Shown one piece after another: positions 2,122-39,932 of a stretch of 64,000 nt of DNA. The translations under genes were made by a program, and so were the position numbers. Under the pieces are notes generated by a model. That model worked only from the letters and a program-made list of their open reading frames with translations. It did not search any database and was not told the origin of the DNA. Every line of letters starts with the position of its first letter. Position 1 is the stretch's first letter. The stretch covers positions 32,001-96,000 of the forward strand of contig JAAOZP010000012.1 in assembly GCA_011605725.1 (NCBI GenBank), given 5' to 3'. This DNA comes from Nitrososphaerota archaeon (GTDB taxonomy: Archaea > Thermoproteota > EX4484-205 > JAAOZP01).

Positions 2122-2129
2122 GCGCGCGC
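2122..2129. repeat. (GC)4 junction run
   Basis: GCGCGCGC(T) joins the truncated secreted gene to the truncated nuclease-like gene, out of frame. Confidence 0.8.
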
Positions 2130-3039
2130 TTATCCTTCTTTAACGAATCGATTTGCCTAAGCATCTCCTCGACATCATGCTTGAGGGCAGTGTAGTTTTC
2201 AAAGAGCTCCCTGTAGGCTGTCCTTAAAGAGTGGTTTAGCCTGATGCTCGTTCCAATTCTTCCGAAACCCTTGGCGACTACGAAGACGTTGAGCAGGCCC
2301 TCGCCACCGGTCCTCACGACGAGGCTTTCTCCAACCCTAGTAACGTTCTCCTCAACGGAAGAACCATCCGGCTTAACGAGCCTGGCGCCAAACCCAGCCA
2401 GCTCACCGGGATACGTGAAGGTTAAGACGGTCTCGTCCACACCCGCCTCAATAGATGCGAGCCTGAGCTCAGGAGGCGTTGGAACAGGCTCGCCTACGAC
2501 TCTAATCATGAAGTCCCCCGGCCTCTTGCTCGTGGCGTTCAGGGAAGCATGGATCGTATGCTCGCCGACGTTCACGATGAAGCTGTTGTTTGAAAAAGGA
2601 GGATCGTCGTCGATACTAATCCAGAGCTGAGTGCCGTCGAGGGTAAACATTGAAACAACGACGACGTAGAAGTCCCCGGTTACCACGACGTTTGGAAGAC
2701 TGATGGTGTACCAGTCTAGCGTAGCGTTCTTGAAGACACTGCTGGGGAGGAATGCTGACCAGTAGACAGTGTTTAAACCAGCATCCCAGATTTGAACGTA
2801 GAAGACTTGAGCGCCCCTGAGGACGCATGTGGCGTGAAGCCTTACCGCCGTTATCCTCCAGCTCGCGGAGGGAGGGGAGACCTCACCATCGCAGCATAAG
2901 GGTAGAAGTCGCTCCAGCCGTAGTCAGCGTTACCATCATCATGGGCAAGCTCGAAAGAAGAGGCGTAAACACTTGGAGCAGTGTTGAGAAACAGCGTTGA
3001 GAAGGCTAACAACAGGAGCGCGAAACCAAGCTTCTTCAA
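2130..3039 (-). pseudogene. Secreted/surface protein, frameshifted near 2880 and truncated at the GC run
   Basis: Signal peptide LKKLGFALLLLAFSTLFLNTAPSVYA. Restoring one base near 2880 joins ORF 2851..3120 to ORF 2078..2686 (AAMVRFSPPSASWRITAVRLH...VVVTGDFY). The coiled-coil end is cut at 2129. Confidence 0.7.
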
Positions 3040-3215
3040 GCTTCTTCTATAAGAATGGGAAGAAATATAAAAATATTGCGTCTCAAAACGACACACCATG
3101 CTTCTAAACGCATACAGCAACGTTCCAAAAACAACATCCTCAAACCCTTTTATGCACCCATGTTCATAATAACAGGATTGCCAGCTGGGGAAAAACTTTT
3201 TATTTCAGAAACCTG

Positions 3216-3408
3216 TTGAAATACTTCACGTTGCTGCAGCGGTGCCACGTGTGTGGAAGAACAGATGAGACCTGTAAGCCATGTCCCTACTGCAACTGGT
3301 GGTTCTGCGGACAGCATTTGGACCCTGAGCAGCATGACTGCACGGGTTTAAAAATCATGGGAAAACCGGTTGATGCTTCAAAGCCTGAAAAACAGGAGAC
3401 ACTCGTGC
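3216..3408 (+). pseudogene. AN1-type zinc-finger protein, 3' truncated
   Basis: CHVC-x9-CPYC-x4-CGQH-x5-HDC zf-AN1 pattern. After the GC run at 3409 the sequence is an unrelated opposite-strand remnant. Confidence 0.65.
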
Positions 3409-3417
3409 CGCGCGCGC
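3409..3417. repeat. C(GC)4 junction run
   Basis: CGCGCGCGC(TA) lies at the end of the zf-AN1 fragment. Confidence 0.8.
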
Positions 3418-3569
3418 TATGGATTCTAACAGACTTGGCAACCGGTTCAGCGTTGAAGAAAACACGTCAATAGACAAGTGGTTTTTAAAGGTGTACAGCG
3501 TCGCATCCATCGATAAGGATTTTAACGATGTTCTCTTTACTGTTGAAGCAGAGATAGTCGATGAATGGG
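3418..3569 (-). pseudogene. Decayed paralog fragment of the 1..646 gene
   Basis: 3521-3569 matches 368-416 at 46/49 nt (PFIDYLCFNSKENIVK vs PFIDYLYFNSKENIIE). In-frame stops follow. Confidence 0.7.
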
Positions 3570-3793
3570 TAGCCTTGGAAAATCGAGGCTTACACTTCAC
3601 TCGTGATAAAGCACATAGATCGCTAGAAGGATATAGTTAGCATTTTATATTTTACCATGACGGAATTATCGATAAAAAGTTTTATTCAGAAATATAACGG
3701 GATGATGGAAGAGCGTATGCTAAGCTTATTGATTCATAATAAAACAGGGCCTCGAAGTGTGCGCTATTTTTCATTATTTATTTCACTATATAT

Positions 3794-4441
3794 CTATTTC
3801 TTGCCCACCCAAGCCTTGCAGATGTCGACTCCAACCACCGCATCCTTCCCATAGCCGTCGGCGCCAATCCTCTTAGCATAGTCCTCAGTTATCGGAGCCC
3901 CGCCAATAATCACTTTAACCTTGTCCCGCAAACCAGCCTTCTTAAGCTCGTTAATCACATTCTCCATCTCAACCATCGTGACAGTCAGAAGCGCCGACAA
4001 GCCCACGATATCAGGCTTATGATTCCTAACAGCATCCACAATAGCCTCAGCCGGAACATCATTACCAAGGTCAATGACCTCGAAGCCAGCAGCCTCCATC
4101 ATCATCCCGAAAATGTTCTTCCCAATATCGTGGAGGTCGCCCTTGACCGTTGCTATTACTGCTTTTCCTATTTTTTTGATTTCTGTGCCTTTCATGTATG
4201 GCTGTAGCATTTGCGATATTTCTTTTCCTATTTCTCCTGCGACTATCAATTCCGACAAAAAGTATTCTGATGCTTCGAATTTTCTCCCGACTTCCTCCAT
4301 TGCTGCGCTTATCCCTTTAGAGATAATCTCGTTGGGCGGTATTCCTTTTGCAACAGCTTCCTGTGCTAGGCGTTTGGAGCCGTCGAAATCTAGGTTGACT
4401 ATCGCGTTCTTCAGCTGTGTAAGTAGATTTTCCTCAGACAT
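3794..4441 (-). CDS. Corrinoid (B12-binding) methyltransferase protein, MtaC/MtbC family
   Basis: Cap domain plus GDLHDIGKN (DxHxxG), GLSALL and IIGGAP motifs. Confidence 0.95.
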   Translation of the reverse strand: MSEENLLTQLKNAIVNLDFDGSKRLAQEAVAKGIPPNEIISKGISAAMEEVGRKFEASEYFLSELIVAGEIGKEISQMLQPYMKGTEIKKIGKAVIATVKGDLHDIGKNIFGMMMEAAGFEVIDLGNDVPAEAIVDAVRNHKPDIVGLSALLTVTMVEMENVINELKKAGLRDKVKVIIGGAPITEDYAKRIGADGYGKDAVVGVDICKAWVGKK

Positions 4442-4566
4442 GTTTCTTCAAGGCTGGCATATGTTTCTTCTTGATAAATCTTTCGTTTACGGGGATGGTT
4501 TTTCTTACTGAGGTGTCTTAATCATGGCGGTGTAGTGTGTGTTAGAAAAATGTAAGGTTTTTATAC

Positions 4567-5772
4567 TTGCTGGAGAAGTTAGCGGAGAGGTGTGCGGCCT
4601 TGGAGAAGCTCAATATTTCTTTAATCGGCTGCGGAGGTATGATGGGGGCGCATGTTAACGGGTTTAGGCAGTTGTATTCCAGGGGGTTGAGGGTTTTCGA
4701 GGTTAAGGCTGTTTGCGACGTTAAGGAGGCTCTTGCGAGGGAGAAGGCTGGGCTGGTTGCGGAGTTTCAGAGTTCTGAGCCTAGGGTTTATACTGACGTT
4801 GAGGAGATGCTTAGGAGTGAGAGTCTGGATGCTGTCGATATTGCTCTACCGCATAATGTTCATCATACTGTGGCAGCTATGTGTCTTGACGAGGGGCTGG
4901 ATGTTATTATTGAGAAGCCTCTGGGGATTACGATGAGGGCTGCAAGGATCATTATGGATAAGGCTAGGAAGAATAGTAGGGTTCTGGCTGTTGCTGAGAA
5001 CTATAGGCGGAGCCCGGAGAATAGGGCTGTTCGCTGGGTTGTGGAGCAGGGTTTGATTGGTGAGCCGAGGATGATAGTCTGGTGTTCCGCGGGCTGGAGT
5101 CCCGGTGCCTGGGGCTGGAGGGAGGACAAGTATGCTGCTGGTGGAAGCTGGGTTTTCGACGGTGGCGTGCATCTGGCTGACTTGGATAGGTATCATTTAA
5201 GGAGGGAGGCGGTGGAGGTCTATGCTGTTCAGAAGACGTTTGACCCGTTTAGGGATGGGACTAGGGTGACTGTTGACGATATGACGATGGCTATTATTGT
5301 TTACGAGGGGGATGTTTATGCGCAGTGGCTGTGGACTAGGGCGGCTCCCGGGAGGGGTCTTGGCTTAAGGATGATTTATGGTTCGAAGGGCTCTGTTGGC
5401 CATGAGGGTCTTTTCAGCGGGCACGCTGCTTACGATGGTCTTTTCATTCAGAAGGAGAATTCTGTAGAGATTGTGGGTATGGGTGTGCTTGTAAGCAGGA
5501 TGTTTGAAGGCCTTAAGCCTGAGGAAAAGTCTAGGATGTTTCCGATGGGGATTACTGACACTGTTGCAACGGAGCTTTACGATTTTTACGATTCTGTTGC
5601 GAACCGGCGTGCACCCGAGGTTGACGGTCTTGAGGCCTATAGGGATATGGCTATACCCCTCGGCTTCTACGAGTCGGCGCTTCTCAGAAAACCGGTTAGC
5701 GTCAGGGACGTGGAGGAGCTTAGGGTTGAAGAATACCAGAAAGAGATAAACGAGAAGCTTGGAATATCCTAG
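4567..5772 (+). CDS. Gfo/Idh/MocA family oxidoreductase
   Basis: IGCGGM Rossmann motif, IIEKP, GGSWVFDGGVH. Confidence 0.92.
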   Translation: MLEKLAERCAALEKLNISLIGCGGMMGAHVNGFRQLYSRGLRVFEVKAVCDVKEALAREKAGLVAEFQSSEPRVYTDVEEMLRSESLDAVDIALPHNVHHTVAAMCLDEGLDVIIEKPLGITMRAARIIMDKARKNSRVLAVAENYRRSPENRAVRWVVEQGLIGEPRMIVWCSAGWSPGAWGWREDKYAAGGSWVFDGGVHLADLDRYHLRREAVEVYAVQKTFDPFRDGTRVTVDDMTMAIIVYEGDVYAQWLWTRAAPGRGLGLRMIYGSKGSVGHEGLFSGHAAYDGLFIQKENSVEIVGMGVLVSRMFEGLKPEEKSRMFPMGITDTVATELYDFYDSVANRRAPEVDGLEAYRDMAIPLGFYESALLRKPVSVRDVEELRVEEYQKEINEKLGIS

Positions 5773-5834
5773 ACATTTTCGACTGTGCCCAGCATGGTGG
5801 AGTTGACTTGCATGCGAAACGCTAAGACTAGAAA

Positions 5835-6803: not shown

Positions 6804-6807
6804 TGAA

Positions 6808-7995: not shown

Positions 7996-8001
7996 GCTGG
8001 A

Positions 8002-9084: not shown

Positions 9085-9167
9085 GGCAAGCCTATTGTCT
9101 AACAGCTTGCCGCATTCAAGTAGAAAAAGTTAATAGAAGCGGAAACCATGAATCCATACGATGAGGA

Positions 9168-10655: not shown

Positions 10656-10694
10656 TGAAAACACTGGATCAGTTCTTTCTGCATTTGATTTATA

Positions 10695-11204: not shown

Positions 11205-11372
11205 AACTTAACCATTATGATATTGGTTATAAAGTTTTATTGATCCGCATGCTTAAAGGTCTTCGAATATTTCTGCAGAAGAATTTACTAGTGTTCTTCA
11301 GGGAGTACTGGTGATGCTGAAACCAGTTTATTCGTAAAATAAACCACTATCTTTATAAACAGGCTGTAGTCT

Positions 11373-12428: not shown

Positions 12429-12537
12429 TATTCCTAGAAACAGAAAGTTACCGCTTTTGGATAAAAATACATTTTTATCAACTAAAAATTAAAAAATACT
12501 TATCTGAAAAATTTCTAATAGAGGTGGAAAATAAAAG

Positions 12538-12660
12538 ATGAAGGTAATTATTCTCGAAAAAGGAAGCAAGGCATGGTATAGGTATACGGCTTGTAACACT
12601 GTAGGATGCGGCCAGAACTGCACCCCTGTCGGATGCGGGAGCTTTATCTCTCCCTATTGA
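12538..12660 (+). CDS. Cys-rich RiPP precursor peptide (40 aa)
   Basis: MKVIILEKGSKAWYRYTACNTVGCGQNCTPVGCGSFISPY*. GAGGTGG RBS at 12521-12527. Ends 23 nt before a radical SAM gene. Below the ORF-track cutoff. Confidence 0.8.
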   Translation: MKVIILEKGSKAWYRYTACNTVGCGQNCTPVGCGSFISPY

Positions 12661-12683
12661 GACTTTAATTCAGAAAAGAGATA

Positions 12684-13586
12684 ATGTCCTCTATTGAGAC
12701 TATCGGTCAAGAAAGGAGATTAAGATTATCTGGATATTGCCTCATCATTCCCTACGATAAAGAAACTTACATACTTTTTCATACATTGAAAGGCGGGATT
12801 GCACTTATTGATGTAGAAGCCAAAAATTTTTTGGAATCCCACAGTAAATCAGGCTTTGCTGCTAGTGAAATCAAAGAATCGCAAGTAAGAGAAGCGGTTC
12901 TCAATTTACTGGAATCAGGGTTTCTTATAGATGAAGAAGTCGATGAATCTGCATTATATAGGTATTTTTTAAACAGGAATCGCTTTGATCATTTTCATGC
13001 AGCCTTCTTGATTTTGACTACCTATGCTTGTAATTTAGCCTGTAAGTACTGTTATCAAGGCTTACAAAAAAGAACCGACATCATGACGCTACATATAGCA
13101 GAAACAGTTAGTAAGTGGATATGCAAGTTGTTAGACTTTAGGAATTCCCGGTCAATCGGTATAATTTTTTATGGAGGTGAACCGTTGTTAAATATAGCAG
13201 CATTAAAATCCGTTAGTAATAATTTATTAAGCTGGAGTAGGCGTACAGGCCGTGAATTATTTACAGGACTTATAACAAATGGAGTATTGCTAACAAGACA
13301 ACTTGCAAATGAATTAGTAGATTCATATGGCTTAAGGCAAGTTCATGTTACGTTTGACGGTAACAAACTTTATCATGATTTAAGGAGATGTTTCCCAAAT
13401 GGAAGCGGCACTTTTGACATCATCTTATCCAACTTACTAAGCTACGTAGATTCCGTGGCTACTATAACTGTGAGAGTAAACTTAGATAAGCATAATGTTG
13501 GAACAGTACCTAAACTATTGGATGTCTTTCAGAGTTACGGTCTTGAAAAGAGCGAGATACGCCTTAGATATAATGGGTTTAAATGA
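12684..13586 (+). pseudogene. Radical SAM peptide maturase (SPASM-type family), C-terminally truncated
   Basis: N-terminal RRE-like region, CNLACKYC, FYGGEPLL, ITNG, TFDG...GSGTFD. It ends before any SPASM cysteines and runs into ABC-ATPase sequence near 13545. Confidence 0.85.
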
Positions 13587-14170
13587 ATTCGAAACTAGTT
13601 ATCCTTCGACACTGTCTTCAGGATATAGACAAAGAACAGCTTTAGCCAGAGGGCTAGCTGTAGACTCCCCAATCTTCTTAGATGAGCCTACGATGAACCT
13701 TGACCCAATTTCAGCAGAGGGTTTCAGAGAGTTCGTGAAGAGCACACTTAGTTTAAGGTTGAGACGCACCATAGTGTGGACGACGCATGTTTTAAGTGAA
13801 GCTGAAAAGCTTGGAGATAGAATTGGAATAATGAAAAAAGGGAAATTTATCATTTGCGATTCTCTGAGAAACTTGATAAAAGGTGCGAATCTGAACACGT
13901 TCAAATTAACGATCTCTGGTATAAATGTGGACGCGTTAGAACAGAAGATCTCTCAATTTAAGAAAAGCTTCGATAAGGGCATTACGGTTCGTCTGCTAAG
14001 CTATGATAACGGAATTACTGAGATAAAAGTGATAGGAGCAGTGGAACACGAGCAAGTAGAAAAAAAACATAAGCTCATGCCTGGACGGCTCTCAAAGGAT
14101 TTTAGAAATCAATGAAGTGAAGCCCTCGTTAGAAGAAGCATTCGTTTTTTATGCTGGTGAATTTCAATGA
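13545..14170 (+). pseudogene. ABC exporter ATP-binding subunit, N-terminally deleted and frameshifted
   Basis: Signature LSSGYRQR, Walker B FLDEPT and H-loop TTH are present; Walker A is missing. Removing one A from the A8 run at 14060-14067 restores ...EVKPSLEEAFVFYAGEFQ*, which overlaps the next ATG. Confidence 0.85.
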
Positions 14171-15081
14171 GCGAACAATATTATCGTAAGTTGTTACGAA
14201 AACCGAGGCTAAGTATAAGGGATTACATTCCAGTATTCTCCGTTTTCGTAAAGCGCTCAGCAAAACAAATAAGTTTCTATAAGACGAGTTTTGTTTTCAA
14301 TATTGTTGGAGTAATTACGGGCGTGCTTTCTTACTATTTCGTGAAATTGACACTGAATCCTTCTGAAATCATAAGCAATTTGGCGCCGTATGGAGGGGAC
14401 TTTATGGCATTTCTTATAGTTGGCATCGCCTTCCAACAATATATAGATCTTGCGCTACACGGGTATTATGAAGGCCTTGCAAGTGCATATTGGGGCTCGA
14501 CCTTAGAACAGTACCTTGTTTCACCGTTGAATCCATTGGTTTTTTCTATAGCACAAGTAATTTGGAGTTTCATCATCAGGAGTCTAAACTTTTTGTTATA
14601 CCTCATAATTGGCATTGCATTGTTTAAAGTGAAGATATTTCCCCTTAGTATTATACCTGTAATTTTGATATTTTGCATTTCAACCATTGCTGTATCTGGA
14701 CTCGGCCTTCTGTCGGCAAGCACTTTTATGCTAATGAACGCAAAGGGTTGGGAGGACCCGATTAGGTGGGCAATCACTACGTTAGAGGGATTAGTCATAG
14801 GAACCTATTATACCCCGGAAATACTTCCGATTCCTTTACAAGTCCTCGGTCTTCTGCTCCCGCAAACTTACGCGTTAGATGCATTAAGACGTTTGCTCAT
14901 AGTGGGTGCTACTTCTGAGAAAGTATTACTTGCACACTCCTTCATCCCAGTAGATCCAATTATAGGTGATATTCTTATCCTACTTGCGATTTCTATTATT
15001 TATGTTCCCCTCGGATACTACGTATTTAACAGAGGAATAAGGTACGCCCAGAAAATTGGTAATTTAACAAGACGGGTCTAG
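14167..15081 (+). CDS. ABC-2 type exporter permease
   Basis: About 6 TM segments, GSTLEQYLVSP, GTYYTPEILP, LPQTYALDALR. Confidence 0.88.
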   Translation: MSEQYYRKLLRKPRLSIRDYIPVFSVFVKRSAKQISFYKTSFVFNIVGVITGVLSYYFVKLTLNPSEIISNLAPYGGDFMAFLIVGIAFQQYIDLALHGYYEGLASAYWGSTLEQYLVSPLNPLVFSIAQVIWSFIIRSLNFLLYLIIGIALFKVKIFPLSIIPVILIFCISTIAVSGLGLLSASTFMLMNAKGWEDPIRWAITTLEGLVIGTYYTPEILPIPLQVLGLLLPQTYALDALRRLLIVGATSEKVLLAHSFIPVDPIIGDILILLAISIIYVPLGYYVFNRGIRYAQKIGNLTRRV

Positions 15082-15100
15082 GACTTTGATTTATCCGATT

Positions 15101-16716: not shown

Positions 16717-16727
16717 CTTTTCTTAAC

Positions 16728-27064: not shown

Positions 27065-27087
27065 TAACGAGCTTCTATAAAGATACT

Positions 27088-29105: not shown

Positions 29106-29159
29106 GATTCTTCACGCCGTATTTAAGAATTCCGTTTTAAAGCGCAATTTTAAATAGTA

Positions 29160-30365
29160 GTGTCTTCATGTGCTTTTCGAGGAAAAGTGCTAAGGATCAG
29201 TGTTTTCACACTCTTACTGATGCTCTTGACCTCAGCAATAAGGACTACGCTAAGTGCCTCAGGCTCCTCTGGAAAAAAGAGTTTCTACGTAGGAGTCTGG
29301 CTAGGAATGTATAGCGACTACTGGCCTAGTGAGAAAACAGAATGGTTGAGAAAGGTTGACGAAGCCTTCAAGTCCTTCAGGGAAGCCGGGATCGACGCCA
29401 TCTATTTTCTAGTTAAAGACCCTTGGGGATATGTTTACTACGAATCCAAGTATGCTCCATTGTCTGAGAAATACAGCTGGGATCTTTTAAGAGAGGTTGT
29501 GGCGAAGGCTAGGGAACATGGTCTCCAAGTATACCCGTATGTAAACGCGTTGGCAGAGGGGGAGACTCAGCCGAACTTCTACCTGAAGGAACATCCTGAC
29601 CTAGCGGTTTCATCTGCAAACGGTGAGAACGGTTGGGTTGACCCATCTAGCGGAGAATACGTTAATAGACTGATATCTATCGTTGAAGAAATCGTTTCAA
29701 ACTATGATGTAGACGGGTTGCAGTTGGACAGGATAAGGATGCCGGGGCCAGTAATAAGGGCGAAAGCCAGTGAAAAACTCTACACGGAGACAACTGGGCT
29801 CACCCCAGCTAACGATGAGAAAAAGTGGCAGGAGTTCGTGAGAGTATTTGAAAAAGTTAAATCAATAGATATGAGCCTGAGGCTTTCCGCCGCGGTTTTC
29901 CCATCCCCTTCGAACGCGGCTTTAAACCAGCTTCAAGACTGGAAGAAATGGGTTGAAGAAGGATGGGTTGACTACGTATGCACGATGGCTTACGCACAGG
30001 GGTTTTACACATTCAAGGCTTATGTAGATGAGGAGAAGGAGGCTTGCGAGCCTGGAAAACTATATGTGGGAATAGGCGCGTGGCAATTGTCCGCGTCTGA
30101 ATTGAAAAAACAGATAAAGTACGTTGTAGTCGACTCAGGACTACCTGGAGTACTATTGTTTAACGGGGATTCTCTACTCAGCAATACGGAGCTTTTAAAC
30201 GCCGTAAAGGAGGCGAAGGAGGGAAAGTTTGGGGAAGACTCATCCTCCTTCCCGTTTATGCTTAGCGCCTCCTCAGCCACCATACTGCTCTGCACAACGC
30301 TATTCTTGCTCCACCTACATGGAAAAAAGCGGAGGAAAAACGTTTCTTTAAAGAAAGCTTATTAG
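29160..30365 (+). CDS. Secreted GHL10 (DUF187) glycoside hydrolase with C-terminal TM anchor
   Basis: Signal peptide, WDLL...HGLQVYPY, YDVDGLQLDRIR, QDWKKWVEEGWVDYVCTMAY, then TM and a basic tail. Confidence 0.85.
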   Translation: MSSCAFRGKVLRISVFTLLLMLLTSAIRTTLSASGSSGKKSFYVGVWLGMYSDYWPSEKTEWLRKVDEAFKSFREAGIDAIYFLVKDPWGYVYYESKYAPLSEKYSWDLLREVVAKAREHGLQVYPYVNALAEGETQPNFYLKEHPDLAVSSANGENGWVDPSSGEYVNRLISIVEEIVSNYDVDGLQLDRIRMPGPVIRAKASEKLYTETTGLTPANDEKKWQEFVRVFEKVKSIDMSLRLSAAVFPSPSNAALNQLQDWKKWVEEGWVDYVCTMAYAQGFYTFKAYVDEEKEACEPGKLYVGIGAWQLSASELKKQIKYVVVDSGLPGVLLFNGDSLLSNTELLNAVKEAKEGKFGEDSSSFPFMLSASSATILLCTTLFLLHLHGKKRRKNVSLKKAY

Positions 30366-30495
30366 ACAAGTATGTTTTCAAATGCTCAGGATAAAGGTGA
30401 ACCCTAAGCTTCAAGAAGCTGATGACTATACTATATTATGATGATCATGGTTGGCGCGCGTTACAGTTTCCCCCGAGAAAAAGCCTTAGAAAGGC

Positions 30496-31830
30496 TTAGC
30501 CACTTACCTTCACGCTTCTTATCCTAATCTTTGGCGCGATCCTCCCCGCCTCGTTCATCGTCCTCCTGCCAACAGCATCTATGGATTGAAGCATTTCGAA
30601 GACTGTGCTTCCAACCATGGCGTTTTTAACAGGATGCTTCACCTCACCATTTTCAACGAGGAACCCATGGTCTATAAGGCTCGAAATATTTGTCGATCCG
30701 CCGACTGGACCCAGAGAACTGTCGTAAACAAATATTCCTCGTTTAACGTCTTTAAAAAGCTCTTCATCCAAATACTCTCCCGGAGCTATCTGAAGATTAG
30801 TTAAGCTTGGCACAGGCTTCTCGGCTAAACTGGGTCTAGAAGCATGACCATTGTTCTCAATTTTTAAAGCATTAGCAGTGTAGGAATCAGTAACGTAGTT
30901 AACCAGTAATCCTTTCTCAATAATCCTTACCTTGCTGCAGGGACATCCCTCGTCGTCGAAAGGCGAAGAAGCCCATCCGGAAGGATAGAGAGGATCGTCA
31001 ATGATACTCAGTTTTTCGCTTGCAACCCTTGACCCCAGTTTTCCAGAGTAATAAGAGGATTTTTGCAGAACGTAAAACGCGTTCGCACCATAGCCAACGA
31101 TACGCTCCAGTGTTCCAAGCGTTGTCCTCTCGTCGAGAATCAGAGCATACCTGCCGTTCTCAACCTTTTTACCGCCAACACTTTTAACAGCCTTCCTTGC
31201 AGCATTGTCCCCCACCTCTTCAAACCTCAGCTCCCTGATGGACCTTGTTAGGAAATAATCGTACCCGGTTCCAATCTCCCCATTCTCTCCCTTCTTAAGA
31301 GCCTCAATACTGAAGGAGAGCCTTGAGGACTTATGAGTTCTCTCCACCCCTAGAGTGTTAACTATGAAGTCTTCAGCCACGCCTAGGCCAGCTCGTCCTG
31401 AGGCGTCAAGAGTTTCATCAACATTCTTCAAGGCGCGCACCCCGTCTAAAACTTTCGACACAAGCTCCTCTGAAGACAGCGTAGCTATCGCGTCGTCATA
31501 CAACCCCCTAACCTCCACCGGCTTCCCTTCTCCAGGAAGAGAGACGAAAGCCTCATCCGGCGGGGTTCCTCTAGCTAAAGATATTGCCCTCTTCACAGCC
31601 TTTTCAACACTGTCTTCATCCAGCTGCGTAGAAGTGGAAATCCCTATCGATTTACCAATGTAAACCCTTACTCCGAAGGAGGAGGAGTAGCCTTCTTCAA
31701 CACTCTTAACGGAACACCTCTCCACAGTCAGGCTGAGAGACCTTCCTGCTGAAGCAACTATTTCAGCCTGGCTGGCGCCAAGCTTCTCAGCCAGCCTAAC
31801 TCCCTTGACGCACAAGTCAAGCGCACCCAT
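30496..31830 (-). CDS. pmbA: TldE/PmbA family protein
   Basis: PFDDEG, NNGHA, TNL motifs; lacks HExxxH. Confidence 0.88.
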   Translation of the reverse strand: MGALDLCVKGVRLAEKLGASQAEIVASAGRSLSLTVERCSVKSVEEGYSSSFGVRVYIGKSIGISTSTQLDEDSVEKAVKRAISLARGTPPDEAFVSLPGEGKPVEVRGLYDDAIATLSSEELVSKVLDGVRALKNVDETLDASGRAGLGVAEDFIVNTLGVERTHKSSRLSFSIEALKKGENGEIGTGYDYFLTRSIRELRFEEVGDNAARKAVKSVGGKKVENGRYALILDERTTLGTLERIVGYGANAFYVLQKSSYYSGKLGSRVASEKLSIIDDPLYPSGWASSPFDDEGCPCSKVRIIEKGLLVNYVTDSYTANALKIENNGHASRPSLAEKPVPSLTNLQIAPGEYLDEELFKDVKRGIFVYDSSLGPVGGSTNISSLIDHGFLVENGEVKHPVKNAMVGSTVFEMLQSIDAVGRRTMNEAGRIAPKIRIRSVKVSG

Positions 31831-31831
31831 C

Positions 31832-31872
31832 TATCTCCTACCTCCAACAACTACGTCCTTAACTGCGAGATG
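31832..31872. repeat. 41-bp direct repeat, copy 1 (tldD 3' end, att-like)
   Basis: TATCTCCTACCTCCAACAACTACGTCCTTAACTGCGAGATG is identical to 34030-34070. With C31831 it forms a minus-strand TAG abutting the tldE ATG. Confidence 0.95.
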
Positions 31873-31963
31873 TAACTCTTTAGAGCTCGGGCTCATTAGA
31901 TTCCTGCGAGAAGCTATGTTTAAAAACTTTATGTGGTAAGAATGGAGGGGTTTAATCATCAGC

Positions 31964-32581
31964 ATGGTTGAGGAGAGAAGGAAAAAGAGCGGGTTCAAGT
32001 ATCCGGATTATCTGGATGAAGAGAAGGTTATGGAGAAGTGGAGAGAAGCAGTCGAGTCAGCTTCTTCTTTAATCAGCTCAATATTTAAGGATGGGCTAGT
32101 AAAGATGATGGCGTATAGAGAACTGTATGGTAAGCTAAAGGAGAAGGGCATAGACTACGATGATGCTGAAGACGTGGTCTCTGAAGCTGAAAGAAAGAAA
32201 CTGATATATTATGATAGTAAGACACGGTCATATAACTGGATTCCCGAGGAGAGAAGGAATGAAGAGATGTGTAAGACAGAGCAATTAGAGAAGACGATTG
32301 CAGACATATTCATAGAGAGAAATGCCAAATGGCTGCATAGAGATGAATTGGTAAGAGGTTTAGCTGGTAAGGGGTTTTCAAGAGAGGATATAGAAAGGGC
32401 TGTTTATGAAGCTATAAGGGATTTTGTGGTCGACTTCCATGAATCCGAAGACATGTTTAGACTCGTTCCAAAAGATGAACGGGTTAGGATGGGGGAGCTT
32501 AGGAGGCTAAGGAAGTTGAATTCAAAGAAATGGTTTTATGAGAAGATGGTGAGAGAGCATGCTTTGGGCTCTGAATCATAA
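31964..32581 (+). CDS. Hypothetical protein with two tandem winged-helix-like repeats
   Basis: ISSIF...ELYGKLKEKGIDYDDAEDVVSEA...YNWIPEERR aligns with IADIF...ELVRGLAGKGFSREDIERAVYEA...FRLVPKDER. Confidence 0.65.
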   Translation: MVEERRKKSGFKYPDYLDEEKVMEKWREAVESASSLISSIFKDGLVKMMAYRELYGKLKEKGIDYDDAEDVVSEAERKKLIYYDSKTRSYNWIPEERRNEEMCKTEQLEKTIADIFIERNAKWLHRDELVRGLAGKGFSREDIERAVYEAIRDFVVDFHESEDMFRLVPKDERVRMGELRRLRKLNSKKWFYEKMVREHALGSES

Positions 32582-32651
32582 ACCTTGTTGAACCTCGCGT
32601 TATAAAAATCACTTATTAGACTTTTAGCATGTTATCATTCATGCTTATATA

Positions 32652-32665
32652 TAGCGCGCGCGCTA
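32652..32665. repeat. TA(GC)5TA 14-bp palindromic junction run
   Basis: TAGCGCGCGCGCTA. The downstream frame of the next gene begins immediately after it. Confidence 0.85.
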
Positions 32666-32795
32666 AGGGGGAATAGCTGTATTAGGTTCTTGGCAGACAG
32701 TCACCCAAGGCGATAGGGAAAGCGGTTTTGTCCCCGACGTCATGAATATTCTGCTGATAAAGGAAGACGGGTCTTTGAGGCTGGAAAAAGCATAA

Positions 32796-34001
32796 TTGGG
32801 CCAATTCAGTCACTTTAGAAACGTCGAGAGAAGGTATGAAAGGTTTTGTGCAGAAGCCAGTGAAGAAGTACCGGGAAAAGGAGTTGAGGGAGAAGGAGAA
32901 TTTCACAAAGCTCATGTGGATTGGGATGATCTTGGGGAGCATGAGATTTTACACCTTAGACATGGAGTACTACAGGAACTTGTAGAGGGAGCAATAGAAA
33001 AGACTAATAGTATGCTGAGGATACAAGAAGAAGCAGGTGTATCGCGAAAAGCCCTGCATGCGATAGAAAAAGGGAGCGATATCATAAGTGTTAAGAACCT
33101 AAAAGGTCTGTGCGATTACTTAGAGATACCGCGTTGGGAAATGGATAAGCATATAATTGGGATCGGTAGTTCTCGAAACCCAGATGCATTAGAGAACCCA
33201 CACCTACCTTTTGACTTCAATACTCCTGAGGGAGCTACGATAATAGCGGCAGCCCTACATGACGGTTATCTTAGGAGTGATGGGACGACTTTCTCATATG
33301 CAAACAAAGATGAGAGGAACGTAGAAACTGTAAAGGAAGCCGTTAAGAAAGTTTTCGGGGATATAAAGCCACTCGAAGAGAAATACGAGTGTGGCGTGAA
33401 GAGAGTGGATTTCATGTCTTGTGCAATAGTGGACGCCTTGGAAAAAATAGGCTTACCGACAGGGAGTAAGACCAAACAGCGATTTCATGTGCCATTATTC
33501 GTCCGAGAAGGCGATGAAGAGTTGCAAAAGGCATACTTACGCCAGACCTTAATGGATGAGGGGAGCTGGAGAGAGTATAAGGGTAGAGTAGAGGAAATAG
33601 CTTATACTCAATCAACATATCTTGATGAGGATAAGCTCACTACTAAGGACATGGAATTTCTCAGGAACTTAGGATTTGAAGAATGTGAAATGCCAACAGG
33701 AGCCCCAGTATACCGTCTTCGTCTTACTAAAGAAGTAAGGGATGAAATAATGAGTGAGGACCCCAATTTATGGAAGGCAATAGAAGAATCTAAACCACCT
33801 AATTTTGAGGAGGAGAGGGAAATGTTCGAAAAATTGTTTGGCGCGCATCCAGATGTGCATCCCAGAGACGTATATTATACAGAAAAAGGAGGTTATAAAG
33901 TGTCATGGGAACTAGTAATTGACGAAGCAGAGGACGCCCGCAGAATTGCGGAAGAACTTAATCTCCCTATACCTAAGCATGGGGGAAAGGAAGGAGAATA
34001 G
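32796..34001 (+). CDS. Xre-type HTH plus LAGLIDADG (DOD-type) endonuclease-like protein, probably 5' truncated
   Basis: QEEAGVSRKALHAIEKG-ISVKNLKGLCDYL HTH; IIAAALHDGYL and AYLRQTLMDEGS LAGLIDADG-like helices; YANKD and VPLFV. The frame is also open 32667-32792 before one TAA. Confidence 0.7.
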   Translation: MGQFSHFRNVERRYERFCAEASEEVPGKGVEGEGEFHKAHVDWDDLGEHEILHLRHGVLQELVEGAIEKTNSMLRIQEEAGVSRKALHAIEKGSDIISVKNLKGLCDYLEIPRWEMDKHIIGIGSSRNPDALENPHLPFDFNTPEGATIIAAALHDGYLRSDGTTFSYANKDERNVETVKEAVKKVFGDIKPLEEKYECGVKRVDFMSCAIVDALEKIGLPTGSKTKQRFHVPLFVREGDEELQKAYLRQTLMDEGSWREYKGRVEEIAYTQSTYLDEDKLTTKDMEFLRNLGFEECEMPTGAPVYRLRLTKEVRDEIMSEDPNLWKAIEESKPPNFEEEREMFEKLFGAHPDVHPRDVYYTEKGGYKVSWELVIDEAEDARRIAEELNLPIPKHGGKEGE

Positions 34002-34028
34002 TGCAGAGTGTTGAGTTATCCTTCTCTT

Positions 34029-35420
34029 TTATCTCCTACCTCCAACAACTACGTCCTTAACTGCGAGATGCGGACCACCGCCGGAGACAGGGACCCACTG
34101 CCCATCCTTCCCACAGCTGCCAGGGAACGCGTGTTTCAAATCGTTTCCGACTCCAATCACGTTTTTCAATACCTCCAGAGTTAACCCTGACATTGAAACG
34201 TTTTGAACTTTCTCTCCTATTTTCCCGTTTTCGATCAAGTAGCCTTCCTGAGCAGTAAAGTAGAACTGCCCCCTCGCTGGGTCGACATATCCTCCGTATG
34301 ATTTCGCCAGGTATATACCATTCTTCACTAGTTCAGCAAGCTCGTCAAAGTTGTATTCACCGTTTTCAACAAAAGTGTTGCTCATCCTAACTATGGGTTT
34401 GCTTGAGAAATTCATTGCCCTAGCAGCCCCGTTTGGCTCAGCATTTAGATGGGCAGCGGTCTCCAGGGAGTGGAGATACCCGACAAGAATACCGTTTTTA
34501 ACTATTTCCCTTCTCACTGCCTTCGTTCCTTCTGAGTCGTAAGGATATGATCCTCTCATACCTGGGAGGGTCGGGTCGTCAACCACGTTTACAGTTTCTA
34601 CTCCAACCCTTTTACCGATTAGCCCTGAAAGAACCGACATGTTAGCCTTAACAGCGTCAGCCTCAGCCGCATGCCCGAATGCCTCGTGGATAAACACTCC
34701 CACGAGGCTCTGATCCATCAGGATGTTCATTCTCCCGCTTGGAGGAGGCAGGGCTTTCAGAAGCTCTACTCCTCTTCTGCCCAGCTCAGAGCCCTCCTTC
34801 ACATAGTCGAACTCCTCCACCAGTTCCCAACCCCTGCTCCCGCCTACGGCGGTGCTCACGTTTTGAACAAGATCACCCTCTTTGGCGACTGCTGAGCCGG
34901 AGAGCCTTATGCTGCAAACCTCGTACTGGACTTCTGAACCTTGACTGTTTACAATAAATTCCTTTTTTACACTGTCAGAGAGCCCGACGGTGGTTGTAAC
35001 TATTCCCTCATTATTCTTCCATATGCACTTGTCGAACTCCAGAGCAGTTTTCACTTTTTCCTCGAGAGAAACACTTCTAGGATCAATTTTCACGTTCAGG
35101 CGAACATCATCCTCATAAGTTTTCTCTATTCTAATCCTTGACTTTTCAGCAACTTTCCCCGAAACGGCTTTAGCCGCCTTATAGGCTTTCTCCAGAGCAG
35201 TATTCATCCCTTGAATAGAGAGATCAGTAGTGTAGTAGAACCCCCAGCCACCGTTGAACAGTACTCTAGCAGCACCGCCGATGCTCGTGTTATAAGATAC
35301 TTCTTCAACAACCCCTTTTCTAATTGAAATGGATGTTGACTCAACCTCTGTTATCCTGAGGTCCGCAAAATCTTCACTTCCCAGATGTAGTAATCCAAAT
35401 AGTTTTCTCATTCCATTCAA
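34029..35420 (-). CDS. tldD: TldD metalloprotease
   Basis: HEAFGHAAEAD, YDSEG, RMSNT, CGKDGQ-VPVSGGGP. Confidence 0.93.
   Translation of the reverse strand: MNGMRKLFGLLHLGSEDFADLRITEVESTSISIRKGVVEEVSYNTSIGGAARVLFNGGWGFYYTTDLSIQGMNTALEKAYKAAKAVSGKVAEKSRIRIEKTYEDDVRLNVKIDPRSVSLEEKVKTALEFDKCIWKNNEGIVTTTVGLSDSVKKEFIVNSQGSEVQYEVCSIRLSGSAVAKEGDLVQNVSTAVGGSRGWELVEEFDYVKEGSELGRRGVELLKALPPPSGRMNILMDQSLVGVFIHEAFGHAAEADAVKANMSVLSGLIGKRVGVETVNVVDDPTLPGMRGSYPYDSEGTKAVRREIVKNGILVGYLHSLETAAHLNAEPNGAARAMNFSSKPIVRMSNTFVENGEYNFDELAELVKNGIYLAKSYGGYVDPARGQFYFTAQEGYLIENGKIGEKVQNVSMSGLTLEVLKNVIGVGNDLKHAFPGSCGKDGQWVPVSGGGPHLAVKDVVVGGRR
34030..34070. repeat. 41-bp direct repeat, copy 2 (current tldD 3' end)
   Basis: Identical to 31832-31872. 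Confidence 0.95.
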
Positions 35421-35530
35421 TCTGGCGTACCAGTTGTTTAAACGCTTTTATAACCTTTACGCACACGTTTTTCCAACTGAAGGATCAATAGCAGTAAAGG
35501 CATTAATATTACTCTAGTGTTTCAACCATT

Positions 35531-36874
35531 ATGATTGAAGACAGGGCTGTTGAGCTCCACAGGAAGTATGGCGGCAAGATCCAAGTTATTCCAAAAGTAC
35601 CTATTAAAAGCTTTGAAGACTTCTCCATCTGGTATACGCCGGGAGTTGCTTCTCCATGCAGACTGATATCCTTAGATAAAGACCTTTCATTCGAATTAAC
35701 GTCTAGATGGAACATGGTTGCCGTGGTTAGCGACGGCAGCAGGGTTCTTGGCCTTGGGAATATTGGACCCTACGCCGGATATCCGGTTATCGAGGGAAAA
35801 TGCCTACTCTTCAAGTTTCTAGGGGGTGTTGACGCTGTTCCAATAGCCTTGGCGACGCAAGATGCAGATAAGATAATAGAGATGGTTAGGCTGATCTCAC
35901 CATCTTTCGGCGGAATAAACCTGGAGGACATTGAAAGCCCAAAATGCTTCCAGATACTTGAAACTCTTCAAAAATCTCTGGAGATACCTGTTTGGCACGA
36001 TGATCAGCAGGGCACTTCGCTCGTGGTTTTGGCAGCGTTAATTAACGCGCTTAAAATTGTTGGAAAAAAGCTGGAGGAGGCTAAGATAACGATAATAGGA
36101 TCCGGGGCCGCAGGAATGGCTACTGCGAGGCTGTTGATGGAGACGGGTGTCAGTGGGAGAAACATGCTTATCGTTGACAGCAAAGGGATTTTAAGCTCTT
36201 CAAGACACGATATGGAAAAACTATCAATATTAAACCCTTGGAAGGCAGAGTTAGCTAGAATGACGAACCCTGAGAATAAGGAGGGGAGTATTGAGGACGC
36301 TTTGAAGGGTTCAGATGTCTTAATCGCGCTGTCAGTGCCTAAGCCAGGTACAGTTAAGAAAGAATGGATAAGTAAGATGGCTGGAGACCCCATAGTCTTC
36401 GCCCTGGCAAACCCTCTTCCTGAAATATGGCCTGAGGATGCTAAGGCCGGAGGCGCTAGAATCGTTGCGACAGGCAGGAGTGATTTTCCAAACCAGGTTA
36501 ACAACAGTTTAGCCTTCCCCTCGATGTTCAGAGGAGTTTTAACGGTAAGGTCTAGAGCAATAACTAATGAGCTTTGCATAGAGGGCGCCAGGTCACTAGC
36601 CCGTTATGCTGAAAGCAAGAGGTTGAGCGAGAACAGTATACTGCCGACAATGGACGATTATATGGCTTATGTTGAAGTCGCACGAAACGTTGCGAGAAAA
36701 GCTATTGAACTAAACTTGGCAAGGAGGAAATATTCTGATAATGAGCTGTACGATGCGATACATTCTATAATAGCGTATCAAAGGGTTCTAATGAGGAACA
36801 TGATTAAAAGCGGGTTGACTGGCGAATATCAGCCTAACACTTCATGCATGGCTACAGATGAGCAGCCTGAGTGA
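35531..36874 (+). CDS. NAD(P)-dependent malic enzyme
   Basis: YTPGVA, VSDGSRVLGLGNIG, INLEDI, HDDQQGT, ATGRSDFPNQVNN. Confidence 0.95.
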   Translation: MIEDRAVELHRKYGGKIQVIPKVPIKSFEDFSIWYTPGVASPCRLISLDKDLSFELTSRWNMVAVVSDGSRVLGLGNIGPYAGYPVIEGKCLLFKFLGGVDAVPIALATQDADKIIEMVRLISPSFGGINLEDIESPKCFQILETLQKSLEIPVWHDDQQGTSLVVLAALINALKIVGKKLEEAKITIIGSGAAGMATARLLMETGVSGRNMLIVDSKGILSSSRHDMEKLSILNPWKAELARMTNPENKEGSIEDALKGSDVLIALSVPKPGTVKKEWISKMAGDPIVFALANPLPEIWPEDAKAGGARIVATGRSDFPNQVNNSLAFPSMFRGVLTVRSRAITNELCIEGARSLARYAESKRLSENSILPTMDDYMAYVEVARNVARKAIELNLARRKYSDNELYDAIHSIIAYQRVLMRNMIKSGLTGEYQPNTSCMATDEQPE

Positions 36875-37286
36875 GGACAAGCGCGGGTTATGCGTATGGA
36901 CAATAGGGTATGGAGGCCTTTCAAAAGACTCTTTCTTAAGCCTATTGAAGAAGCATCGGATCGATCTGCTGGTGGATGTCCGCAGGTTTCCGAATTCCAG
37001 GCTTGAATATTTCCGCCGAGAAAGCCTGGAGAAATGGCTTCCCAAAGAAGGTGTTGAATACTTGTGGCTTGGAGAGGAGCTTGGAGGCTACCGTCGAGGA
37101 GGCTATGAGAAACACATGGAGACTAAGGTTTTCAAAGAAGGAGTTAGGAGGCTTCTGGAACTGGCGAGGCATGGAAGGACATGCATAATGTGTCTGGAAA
37201 CGGATCCAAAATATTGTCATAGAAGGTTTATAGCATCATGTTTGAGAAAAAACGGAGTCAGAATACTCCATATAACAAGGGGTTAA
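36858..37286 (+). CDS. DUF488 family protein
   Basis: TIGY, LVDVRRFP, LGG, MCLE-P-CHR. Confidence 0.88.
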   Translation: MSSLSEDKRGLCVWTIGYGGLSKDSFLSLLKKHRIDLLVDVRRFPNSRLEYFRRESLEKWLPKEGVEYLWLGEELGGYRRGGYEKHMETKVFKEGVRRLLELARHGRTCIMCLETDPKYCHRRFIASCLRKNGVRILHITRG

Positions 37287-37369
37287 TAAAGCAGCCGGAG
37301 ACTAACCCCTGAATTTAGGATTAAATATTTCGAATAAGTAGAAACAGGCTTGCCTCCAAATTCTCCTGA

Positions 37370-37600
37370 TCATAGCTCTATCGTTAGCCCGTCGTAAGCA
37401 ACTTCAACATTTTTGGGCTTTAACCTCTCGACCAGTTCTTCAGCGCGCGCGCTAATCTTTAAATCATTGTTTACCAGTGTTGAAGACTTTGTCCTCACGT
37501 TTCTACCGCCAGCATTTCTTGCCCTCCTGCAATTCGCGCACTGGCAAAACACCGCTGGCCACTCCTCGGCCGCGCCTGTCCCCAGAAACATGACCCTCAT
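37370..37600 (-). pseudogene. PhnP-like MBL-fold hydrolase with a large internal deletion
   Basis: The family N-terminus (FLGTGAAEEWPAVFCQCANC...DLKI) is joined directly to the family C-terminus (EELVERLKP...VAYDGLTIEL) through SARA encoded by the GC run. HxHxDH is missing. Confidence 0.85.
37442..37453. repeat. A(GC)5T palindromic junction run
   Basis: AGCGCGCGCGCT lies exactly at the deletion junction. Confidence 0.9.
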
Positions 37601-37669
37601 ATTTTGACCCCGAAGCTTCAAGTAGGTTTATATAGGCTTACCGTTAACGAGCTCGGCCGTTAGCCAGCA

Positions 37670-39136
37670 TTAAGAATAGTTAGGCGCATGGTTTTGTAAA
37701 CGTATTTCACCACGAGGATTTAAATGAGGTTTTGCCTTCTCATGTGAGAGAACCCTTAACTCGTAAGTCCATGCATCATAGTAAAGGTTTCCTCCTTTCC
37801 ACTCAACCTCTCCACGCTGATTATCCACAGTATCCGACCTGAAGTGAGCCTTGGGAGGAATAAAGTTTGAAGAGATATCCATGTTAGCCACAAGCCTGTA
37901 GTGGTCGATATTTCCGAAGTAGAACCTGCGGTATTTCTCGATGTTTCTAAAATGGCCGCCAAAAGACGGGTCTGCGTAAAGCCACCCGTATGGTTCTACG
38001 TAGAACTGGGCCCAATCATGCGGACTCGGCTTAACCGGATTCAGATACCATCCTGATTGCCACCTTGCAGGAACCCCGCTTATCCTGCAGAGGGTTATGA
38101 ATAGCAGGGCTTGAACCCCGCAGTCTCCTCTAAGGTTTCTCGCAGCATAATCGCTGATGCATTCTATCGTCGAGTATTCCGGTACTAGGGCGTAACTAAC
38201 GTTTTCAGTTATCCACTCGTATATGTGCCAAGCCTTAAGATACGGGTTTGACTCTCCGGAGACAAGCTCGTCTGCAAGCCTTCTCAGATACGGGGTGAAA
38301 ACTATGTGGGGTAGAGTCTCAGAAGTGTATCTTCTGTAGGATTCGTCCTCAAAGTACGAACCTATCTTCTCGGGCTTTATCTCAACATAGGCTGCGTTAA
38401 CCGCATACTCGTATTCAACACGGAATTCAAGCTCCTCGCCCTTAATGGACTTTTTCTCGAAATATATTGTTCTTTGTGGAGTATCCTCTGGAGCTATAAA
38501 ATAATTCTCTGGAATTGTAGACACGAGTCTAACAACCGGTTGCAACAGGCTCCTTTGAGGAAAGGGCATCCAGACTCTCACAGTTTCACCATCCGGAACA
38601 ACGTCATGCTTAACTCTCAACACCGTCAACACCCTGTTCCATACCGGGTCAAAATATCTGGCTTCAGACCTTCTTCCTCTGAGAATCACGGCGTCTAAGT
38701 GTTTGAACAGCATGCTCCGAATCCCATTATTATCTTCCCTCGCTTTCAGCCTACTTTTAATCTCAACCCTTTCCCTAAGAAGATTAGGCAGGAAGTTTCT
38801 AAATATTCTTATCTCCCCCTCTATCCTAATACAGTCTATGATTCTCCTTCTAACCCATTCGTCAAACTCGTCCCTAGTCAAACCCTGAACCCTCTCCTTA
38901 AGTAAGGCGAAAGCCTCTTCTTCAGAAAGCGAATAATCCCACCTGATCCTCCGAATTCTTTCCAATTCCCACTCTAATCTGGATTTCAGGAAGCTTGGAA
39001 GCCGCCTCCCCTCACGCAGGATCTGGTTTATCGCGGTAACTGCTTCTTCGAAAAGCCCGTCCTCCTCAAGGCGTCGAATCCTGTCCGGCAGACCAGTCGT
39101 CAAGAATTCGCTTCCAAGAACGTCTGTTTTTCGCAA
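37670..39136 (-). CDS. Transglutaminase-like cysteine protease domain protein
   Basis: Catalytic triad motifs GDCG, PHDWAQFY and YADPS. Confidence 0.85.
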   Translation of the reverse strand: MRKTDVLGSEFLTTGLPDRIRRLEEDGLFEEAVTAINQILREGRRLPSFLKSRLEWELERIRRIRWDYSLSEEEAFALLKERVQGLTRDEFDEWVRRRIIDCIRIEGEIRIFRNFLPNLLRERVEIKSRLKAREDNNGIRSMLFKHLDAVILRGRRSEARYFDPVWNRVLTVLRVKHDVVPDGETVRVWMPFPQRSLLQPVVRLVSTIPENYFIAPEDTPQRTIYFEKKSIKGEELEFRVEYEYAVNAAYVEIKPEKIGSYFEDESYRRYTSETLPHIVFTPYLRRLADELVSGESNPYLKAWHIYEWITENVSYALVPEYSTIECISDYAARNLRGDCGVQALLFITLCRISGVPARWQSGWYLNPVKPSPHDWAQFYVEPYGWLYADPSFGGHFRNIEKYRRFYFGNIDHYRLVANMDISSNFIPPKAHFRSDTVDNQRGEVEWKGGNLYYDAWTYELRVLSHEKAKPHLNPRGEIRLQNHAPNYS

Positions 39137-39236
39137 TACTGCTAATCTTAAAGCACAGAGGAATATTTAGGCATTAAGGCAGACACAGCTAAACCCTTAT
39201 GTATTGCTTGGGTTAACACAATAATGGTGAAGCCCA

Positions 39237-39922
39237 ATGTGTATGGAGAAGCCGTCGCCCTTCCCCTGCTCAGAGGAGAAGATACCCAGCTATATAGCCT
39301 ACCGCGTTAACGAGCGGATCCGGATTGACGGACTGTTAGACGAGGCTTGCTGGCGAATAGCACCCCGCTCCCCCCGCTTCGTAGATCTTGTTAGCGGCCG
39401 GCCGGCCCTCTACGACACGTATGCAGCAGTACTATGGGACGATGATAACCTGTATGTAGGCTTCTGGGTGGAGGAGCCTCTTGTAGTCGCCACCCTGACC
39501 GAGCGCGACTCTCCGATTTACGAGGATAATGACGTGGAGCTTTTCATCGCTGGCAGAGACGCCTACTACGAGTTTGAGATAAACGCGCTTGGAACCATCT
39601 ATGAGGTTCTCTTCATATGGGAAGATGCTTACGAGAAATCCGGCTACAGTAGTCTTCCAGAGCTTAGAAGAGACGTTCCCGGTGTAAGACTGTTTCCAGG
39701 AATAGGATTTAGAAACCATCCTCGTGGCCGGCGAATAGGATTCTGGAACTGGGATTTTCCTGGATTAAGAGCAGCGGTCCACGTCGACGGAACTCAATAA
39801 TAACCAGGATAGGGATAGGGGTTGGACGGTTGAGCTAGCCTTGCCCTGGAAGGGGATGAAGGTGCTCGCCATGTCTGACAACCGGCCGCTGCCTCCTAAG
39901 GATGGAGAAACCTGGCGTATGA
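39237..39922 (+). pseudogene. CBM9-like sugar-binding protein, frameshifted near 39793 and truncated at the GC run
   Basis: IDGLLDEACW, WDDDNLY, YYEFEINALG. After the shift the frame continues NNNQDRDRGWTVELALPW...GETWRM, then reaches the GC run. Confidence 0.8.
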
Positions 39923-39932
39923 GCGCGCGCGC
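39923..39932. repeat. (GC)5 junction run
   Basis: (A)GCGCGCGCGC terminates the CBM9-like homology. Confidence 0.85.

Follow-up and report, generated by a model that had tools for sequence, protein, structure and literature searches.

GC-repeat scars at deletion joins in an archaeal genome and a candidate primase-fold enzyme with a putative template RNA

Telomerase consists of TERT and telomerase RNA and is known for de novo telomere addition at breaks as well as for its work at chromosome ends. A possible archaeal analogue, on a primase fold, is suggested by alternating G/C runs in a 64,000-nucleotide stretch of DNA from a Nitrososphaerota archaeon (contig JAAOZP010000012.1 of assembly GCA_011605725.1, positions 32,001 to 96,000; hereafter the window). 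Close homologues of the genes of this genome, designated G000, are labelled Ca. Brockarchaeota, and the sequencing runs containing its sequence are mostly hot-spring metagenomes. The G/C runs are, with good probability, scars of end joining in which a solo primase, AEP-X, would copy its own template RNA onto broken ends, a reading drawn from comparison of sequences. The wider proposition, likely too though put forward with a little less assurance, is of a telomerase analogue in which a PriS paralogue and a template RNA would add programmable self-complementary repeats to both ends of a break, so joining any two ends without homology or Ku.

The likeness to telomerase lies in the proposed pairing of a few bases of a DNA 3′ end with a short internal RNA template that is then copied onto it, in a possible realignment for repeats, in the location of the template between a 5′ helix and a pseudoknot, and in a change of template going with a change of product, here judged by comparison of structure and by the match between template and scar. 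The differences are that the enzyme is a PriS-fold primase rather than a reverse transcriptase, and archaeal, and that the repeats are self-complementary and are at internal joins rather than chromosome ends. DRT10, which is antiviral, combines a protein-primed Class 2 DRT reverse transcriptase with a SLATT effector; the template of its non-coding RNA sets a tandem repeat through an A-B-A′ pattern, and the product is not built into the chromosome (10.1101/2025.10.16.682844). Shared with it are a prokaryotic enzyme with an adjacent, here putative, non-coding RNA and a template loop that varies between homologues and would set a tandem repeat in like manner, but here no reverse transcriptase was found in 17 genus genomes and no SLATT effector recurs at 110 AEP-X loci.

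The pp-MMEJ of Saccharolobus islandicus PriSL likewise features an archaeal PriS-family enzyme at breaks, no Ku and bridging by GC pairs; it is, however, the work of the replicative heterodimer with PriL, involves no RNA and yields mostly 1-2-bp indels (PMC12019639), whereas AEP-X is a separate clade without PriL and the joins at issue accompany large deletions without microhomology. The LigD polymerase domain of Ku-LigD non-homologous end joining also has the AEP fold and adds nucleotides at broken ends, but its additions are short, with neither fixed repeat nor RNA, and Ku as joiner was set aside here, no PF02735 match being present in G000 (93% complete). PolpTN2 has a PriS-like domain that, without the PriL part, copies RNA into DNA in vitro (PMC3973330), though unlike AEP-X it is a plasmid replication primase with no dedicated RNA, and it shows this activity only on truncation. 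From a purely compositional perspective, HIP1 of cyanobacteria (PMC4390886, PMC5861425) is a parallel, being a short palindrome strongly over-represented in one lineage, but the word here avoids coding DNA (8% against 82%), varies in length (6-16) and arises at deletion joins. No published report of the scar, of the AEP-X clade or of its RNA was found in the literature outside subscription papers.

Alternating G/C runs of at least 8 nt are present in the window at 2122-2129, 3409-3417, 32654-32663, 37443-37452 and 39923-39932, with none beyond these five. A sequence-only reading had pointed to them, to the (GC)5 in three of them and the A or T flank on each, and to a break at every one; all of this stands, as comparison with same-species strains reveals a deletion at each (3877, 696, 1690, 605 and 501 bp, respectively), and a GC run is at neither breakpoint of the longer allele for any of the five. 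The identity of the broken genes needed more revision. At 2122..2129, (GC)4 filler replaces 3877 bp and joins codon ~338 of a 414-aa open reading frame (ORF) to codon ~1219 of a 1709-aa ORF, both on the minus strand. The fusion of a secreted gene to a headless nuclease-like gene proposed for this site is correct in substance, though ‘nuclease-like’ is without Pfam support. The longer allele, run-free at both breakpoints, is that of L056 and L064 (L numbers denote loci fetched), and among those loci the junction is in this assembly only. At 3409..3418, GC filler with an added T replaces 696 bp inside a 280-aa zf-AN1 gene, and what had been taken for a join to an opposite-strand remnant is actually an in-frame internal deletion of that one gene, from codon 31 to 264; the junction recurs in seven further assemblies (L056-L061, L063), L064 having the intact allele.

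The 12-nt filler A(GC)5T at 32653..32664 replaces 1690 bp and leaves only codons 557-598 of a 598-aa metallophosphoesterase-like gene, intact in sequencing run X1 and in L065, L067, L068, L070 and L071. It is this upstream gene that is broken, and not the start of the HTH frame as had been thought; the gene for the 401-aa HTH protein (32796..34001, plus strand) is intact, outside the damage and identical to the L065 allele, and the label ‘LAGLIDADG’ given to it is without Pfam support. The two remaining breaks were in substance rightly read. An 11-nt filler, (GC)5T, at 37443..37453 replaces 605 bp, in frame, in a 274-aa metallo-beta-lactamase-fold gene (the ‘PhnP-like’ gene with its termini joined); the junction is also in L065 and L068, there with one later C-to-T change, and X1, X2, L066, L067, L069, L071-L073 and the sister species are intact. 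The 9-nt GC filler at 39923..39931 replaces 501 bp, truncating a 279-aa CBM9-like gene at codon ~228 and taking most of the following 87-aa ORF, with the intact allele in X1, L065-L069, L072, L073 and seven sister species.

Structural differences between strains, found by anchors rather than by run, were tabulated from 29 same-species loci of other assemblies, and the joins carry 5-18 added bases. Clean deletions of at least 100 bp have GC filler of 9-18 nt in 10 of 12 cases; at these ten, microhomology is absent, while of the two without filler one has a 5-bp microhomology and the other a 43-bp repeat. Ordinary slippage accounts for most small indels, and a run is missing from the ends of several long allele swaps; the filler is therefore the mark of a single class of event and not of all. 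The longer alleles of the 32654, 37443 and 39923 sites (1690, 605 and 501 bp) are on contigs from four independent studies, and contigs of the same studies carry further GC-filled joins where the window is intact. Relative to the window, 1953 bp (12532..14484) are deleted with an out-of-register 11-nt GC filler in L055, L057 and L062; 8 nt (12692..12699) give way to 5-7 nt of GC filler in L056 and L058-L061; 4 nt (29425..29428) to A(GC)6T in L066; 384 bp (33122..33505) to a 12-nt GC filler in run X6; and 216 bp (45803..46018) to A(GC)7 in L066 and L069, with a pure (GC)6 insertion at 40255..40256 in run X9. The earlier description of a non-templated end-joining footprint thus holds in that the filler is absent from intact alleles, marks most large deletions and recurs in independent assemblies; where it does not is that the filler appears to be templated, by a separate RNA.

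Across the 2.23 Mb of the genome there are 201 runs of at least 8 nt, other dinucleotide pairs declining smoothly with length. (GC)4 is the most over-represented octamer, with 458 copies on both strands against 16 expected under an order-3 Markov model, and A(GC)4T has 88 copies against 2 for the reversed control word; in the same genus its count is 16-118 in several genomes and zero in others. Only 7 of the 88 (8%) are inside long ORFs, which make up 82% of the genome. The expected enrichment at breakpoints is borne out, since homology ends at 41 of 48 informative runs and at 21 of 91 nearby control sites (p 9e-13). Run lengths are 6-16, the scars being (GC)3-8, and they cluster in variable islands. 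Older scars decay through C-to-T changes within the run (L065, L068, G002:C54).

What the ends of the runs look like is informative about how they arose. In the strain comparisons an extra A is nearly confined to ends with a terminal T, whichever the strand, and an A, G or C at the end leads directly into the alternation. A register model, which has each 3′ end carry on along T, A, G, C, G, C from wherever it stands in that series and takes flank composition as its sole fitted parameter, has a log likelihood of -568 over 401 run ends, against -705 to -963 for fixed fillers; for TA before G, to take one class, 0.39 was predicted and 0.387 seen. This rule, derived before the RNA considered below was found, leads to a template 5′-GCGCTA-3′ (5′-GCGCUA-3′ as RNA) and to action on both ends. 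Some joins are out of register, with an extra G or C in the middle, which fits two tails made separately.

The candidate enzyme, AEP-X, is a solo PriS-like primase (PF01896) of about 260-290 aa, with an intact copy in G000 at C7:378918-379797. Most of the tract-rich genomes in the genus have the gene, and in the tract-free ones it did not turn up. DxD, SGxxGxH and the third Asp are all kept, with D112, D114, H168 and D220 invariant in 59 sequences, and a structure model (pLDDT 87) has the PriS fold, its best matches being archaeal PriS, at ~16% identity to solved PriS, with a fold match also to the LigD polymerase domain. The family forms a clade of its own apart from replicative PriS (36 bits against PriS cut-offs of 143-577), and a canonical PriS gene is present separately in this genome. 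In a scan of 185,579 species genomes it is confined to Brockarchaeota and Bathyarchaeia, bar one short contig binned as bacterial; it was not found in viral contigs, and a viral source is therefore not supported. Over 110 loci no priL was found among its neighbours and no nuclease or effector recurs, the only recurrent neighbours being RadA (11 loci) and a 124-aa ORF (7 loci). The latter (e.g. L334:1201-1575), which belongs to no known family, comes after AEP-X at loci with RNAs of the second class mentioned below. In this genome C7:376638-379797 (L087:6639-9797) carries dinB, a second radA sharing 50% identity with the housekeeping one, and AEP-X, in that order, and Brockarchaeota retain the overlap of radA with AEP-X at different loci; DinB was dropped as a partner, as it adjoins radA-AEP-X in this genome only.

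Other potential writers fared less well. There is no RVT_1 match, and so no candidate reverse transcriptase, in 17 genus genomes; the second PolB is also in tract-free G003 and G005; and a 446-aa AEP (C1:1195-2535) is in nearly all genus genomes, tract-free ones included. Tract-poor Bathyarchaeia have further solo AEPs of small size (259-276 aa, one of 440 aa; L273, L274, L267, L268, L275), with the RNA absent. For AEP-X itself, 14 of 15 Bathyarchaeia picked only for possession of the gene have 20-179 tract copies, most of 380 other genomes of the phylum having 0-5, and in one family sample all six AEP-X genomes have at least 82 tracts, with at least 50 in 18 of 145 others. AEP-X loci contain 266 runs where 9 are expected.

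Over the 3′ end of AEP-X lies a conserved element of about 100-140 nt, found via shared words beside the gene. It follows 67 of 80 AEP-X 3′ ends and, among ~400 loci, is at AEP-X or remnant loci only, plus one orphan; no Rfam match was found. Three helices, one of them a pseudoknot between the 5′ end and the 3′ loop, show 94% pairing, more than any shuffle or slid register, with compensatory changes on both sides at 17 of 28 pairs, pseudoknot included, and in a second RNA class both pseudoknot strands change together. Many of the predicted pairs are G-U. K-turn-like motifs, CUGA and GAUGA, close the first helix; they stand in the order D then C, where a box C/D guide RNA has C, D′, C′ and D in sequence. 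In the single-stranded linker after that helix is GCGCTA, the very template predicted from the joins. The RNA template holds (GC)2 and the scars (GC)3-8, later slippage also altering length. In some loci the RNA copy is 0.7-7 kb from the AEP-X gene (L230, which has two, L338, L327 and L342), and G000 has, at C4:117050-117114 (minus strand), a second, degenerate half copy without AEP-X remnant.

A more demanding comparison is of the linker of each RNA with run ends on the same contig. With template GCGCTA, A precedes GC at 105 of 204 ends; with GCGCGTA, A precedes CG at 14 of 20; templates ending GCA or GCATA go with T before GC, and TGCGA with T before CG. Over 41 loci the template predicts the same-contig scar (permutation p 1e-5), and it does so after collapsing to 15 protein clusters at 70% identity (p 6e-5) or 8 at 60% (p 0.006). 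Some templates are not of GC type, and with these go (TAGC)n tracts in L298 (four in 13 kb) and L303, (TGCA)n tracts in L310 (two in 2.2 kb) and L315, and (GATC)n in L224, whose genome has 3.75 per 100 kb against 0 in G409 and in the 2.2 Mb of G000 and 1.67 in G412. As a forward test, four distant AEP-X members (L425, L426, L427, L428) were fetched once the idea was in place. L427, whose template is GATCGA, lacks GC runs and carries six (GATC)n tracts within 5.4 kb, almost all of them intergenic or at gene edges; L426 ends close to the gene, and in the 3 kb of L428 tracts are absent. All repeat units, GC and non-GC alike, are self-complementary, and self-complementarity is what two tails need to anneal. 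Two sets of relatives depart from this pattern of templates. In L139 (G023) and L428 a 30%-identical AEP-X homologue is followed by an RNA-like stretch with a possible pseudoknot and a template that is not self-complementary, G023 having 23 CG-phase words to 8 in GC phase; and at L219:3074-3173 (G006) the RNA template has changed to a non-self-complementary word in a genome with fewer tracts (25).

The proposed course of events would start with a break, often with loss of DNA; the deletions are seen, and a double-strand break is the presumed substrate. Self-targeting or cutting of foreign DNA by CRISPR could be one source of breaks, and by 10-mer counts a CRISPR-like repeat is present in G000 in ~89 copies. 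Each 3′ end would then pair, by its last base, with single-stranded 5′-GCGCUA-3′ in whichever register fits, giving T then AGC.., A then GC.., G then CG.. or C then GC.., an outcome with which the run ends agree statistically. From the lengths of 6-16, AEP-X would copy the template to its boundary, realign by two bases and copy again, after which the self-complementary tails would anneal and host enzymes fill and ligate. Expression of the RNA is likewise presumed. Such chemistry is plausible given the role of PriSL at breaks (PMC12019639) and the reverse transcriptase activity of a PriS domain lacking PriL (PMC3973330).

Several observations weigh against an AEP-X- and RNA-based origin of the scars, or at least complicate it. 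In G000 the intact AEP-X (C7) is accompanied by degenerate RNA only, and the intact RNA copy (C12:18839-18937) is beside a radA-AEP-X copy cut by a scar at C12:18265; with intact protein and RNA at different loci, action in trans or recent loss has to be assumed. Two other tract-rich species show the same split. Between G000 and G002 the RNA is 96.5% identical and the adjoining coding remnants 66%, conservation that would fit use in trans. A necessity test set beforehand failed: only one of 10 tract-rich Bathyarchaeia missed by the gene scan has an AEP-X match at E 1e-10 or better, and other small AEPs reach that threshold in two of 10 tract-poor ones. The RNA turned up in one of five tract-rich genomes missed by the gene scan (part of the candidates being scored), and gene or RNA remnants are in five of 12 tract-rich genomes tested, with none in the other seven. 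G009 and G010, of this genus, have about 20 tracts and no match (a contrast in which G010 had seemed to lack both gene and tracts was dropped when a looser word gave 20 tracts), and in two Brockarchaeota genomes that have AEP-X the tract word is not in excess of its control (2/1 and 15/15). As for the template, in G411 and G409 the common scar type predominates over the predicted one, 120 kb of G412 contain two (GATC)n tracts although the corresponding template is absent, in L425 only one of six ends is as predicted, a weak match, and the template classes represent few independent lineages. Much of the discordance in presence would follow if AEP-X is often lost while the scars stay behind, a reading for which there are the remnants in five of 12 tract-rich genomes and the fragmentary state of more than 100 of the 150 best protein clusters; the gene changes locus and decays often, at times through what appear to be its own scars, which would outlast it.

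Of the alternatives, the one that survives best, though unlikely, is that AEP-X and the RNA write the repeat in defence, tailing or capping invading or excised DNA, or that the element cuts DNA itself, chromosomal scars being collateral. The mobility and frequent decay of AEP-X are like those of defence genes, DRT10 is another repeat-writing prokaryotic ribonucleoprotein and is antiviral, and the scars cluster in variable islands. Such clustering is, however, expected from selection against core-gene deletions, the sole steady neighbour is a RadA paralogue (in Brockarchaeota) rather than a nuclease or effector, and viral contigs did not yield AEP-X.

Rather improbable is a role for PriSL or another common enzyme that would write filler by terminal transfer with GC microhomology, AEP-X and the RNA merely sharing lineages with the scars. 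It is to the point that breaks in Saccharolobus are repaired by PriSL, with a preference for 2-4 GC pairs and insertion of C (PMC12019639), and that many tract-rich genomes today are without AEP-X. Yet the 1-2-bp indels that mostly make up its reported products contrast with a fixed repeat of 6-16 nt, and the tracking of RNA template by scar, (GATC)n, (TAGC)n and (TGCA)n included, is beyond its reach. Tract-rich and tract-poor genomes intermingle in parts of the PriS tree; the tract-poor controls are mostly of one clade and hence not independent.

Very improbable is use of the template as DNA, or ligation or annealing into the break of a preformed palindromic oligonucleotide. An oligonucleotide pairing through its 3′ end with the terminal base of the break would yield the identical register rule, but the many G-U pairs, K-turn-like motifs and pseudoknot point to RNA, and variable lengths and out-of-register joins suggest two separately made tails. 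Scarcely credible, finally, is that pre-existing GC runs are fragile sites or transposon footprints, or that the joins are library or assembly chimeras (transposon excision and chimerism having both been raised by the sequence-only reading): runs do slip by two bases once formed (L056 against L058-L061) and three of the five window junctions (2122, 32654, 39923) were seen in this assembly only, but intact alleles have no run, target site or duplication, flanks share at most 2 bases, the 3409 and 37443 junctions are found again in seven and two further assemblies, respectively (the latter with a later point change), and other strains carry other scars, so that, with homology ending at runs and the avoidance of ORFs, these readings are rejected for the class. 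The contigs of the sequencing runs list no piece across the three private junctions, which speaks neither for nor against them.

Some further features of the window are recorded for completeness. The CBM9-like gene has a separate 2-bp frameshift at ~39794, private to this assembly. An island at 31797-34029 between two tldD/pmbA genes comprises a RecX-like HTH gene, the metallophosphoesterase-like gene and the HTH gene; it is absent from strain L066, and its ends have no GC run. A direct repeat of 43-49 bp (368-416, 3521-3569), integration-site-like, bounds a 3.1-kb segment missing from L055 and L062.

RNA-templated tailing by AEP-X, if true, would be a new way of rejoining broken DNA, and AEP-X the first primase-fold enzyme with a dedicated template RNA. 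The natural template variants suggest a programmable product, and a small thermostable tool for tailing ends is plausible on that basis. How ends are joined without Ku in most archaea is an open question, for which AEP-X and its RNA are a two-component candidate. In this species the scheme would explain a genome-wide mutational signature, that of most large deletions, and a second protein fold would have come to support telomerase-like repeat addition, for joining ends and not for capping them.

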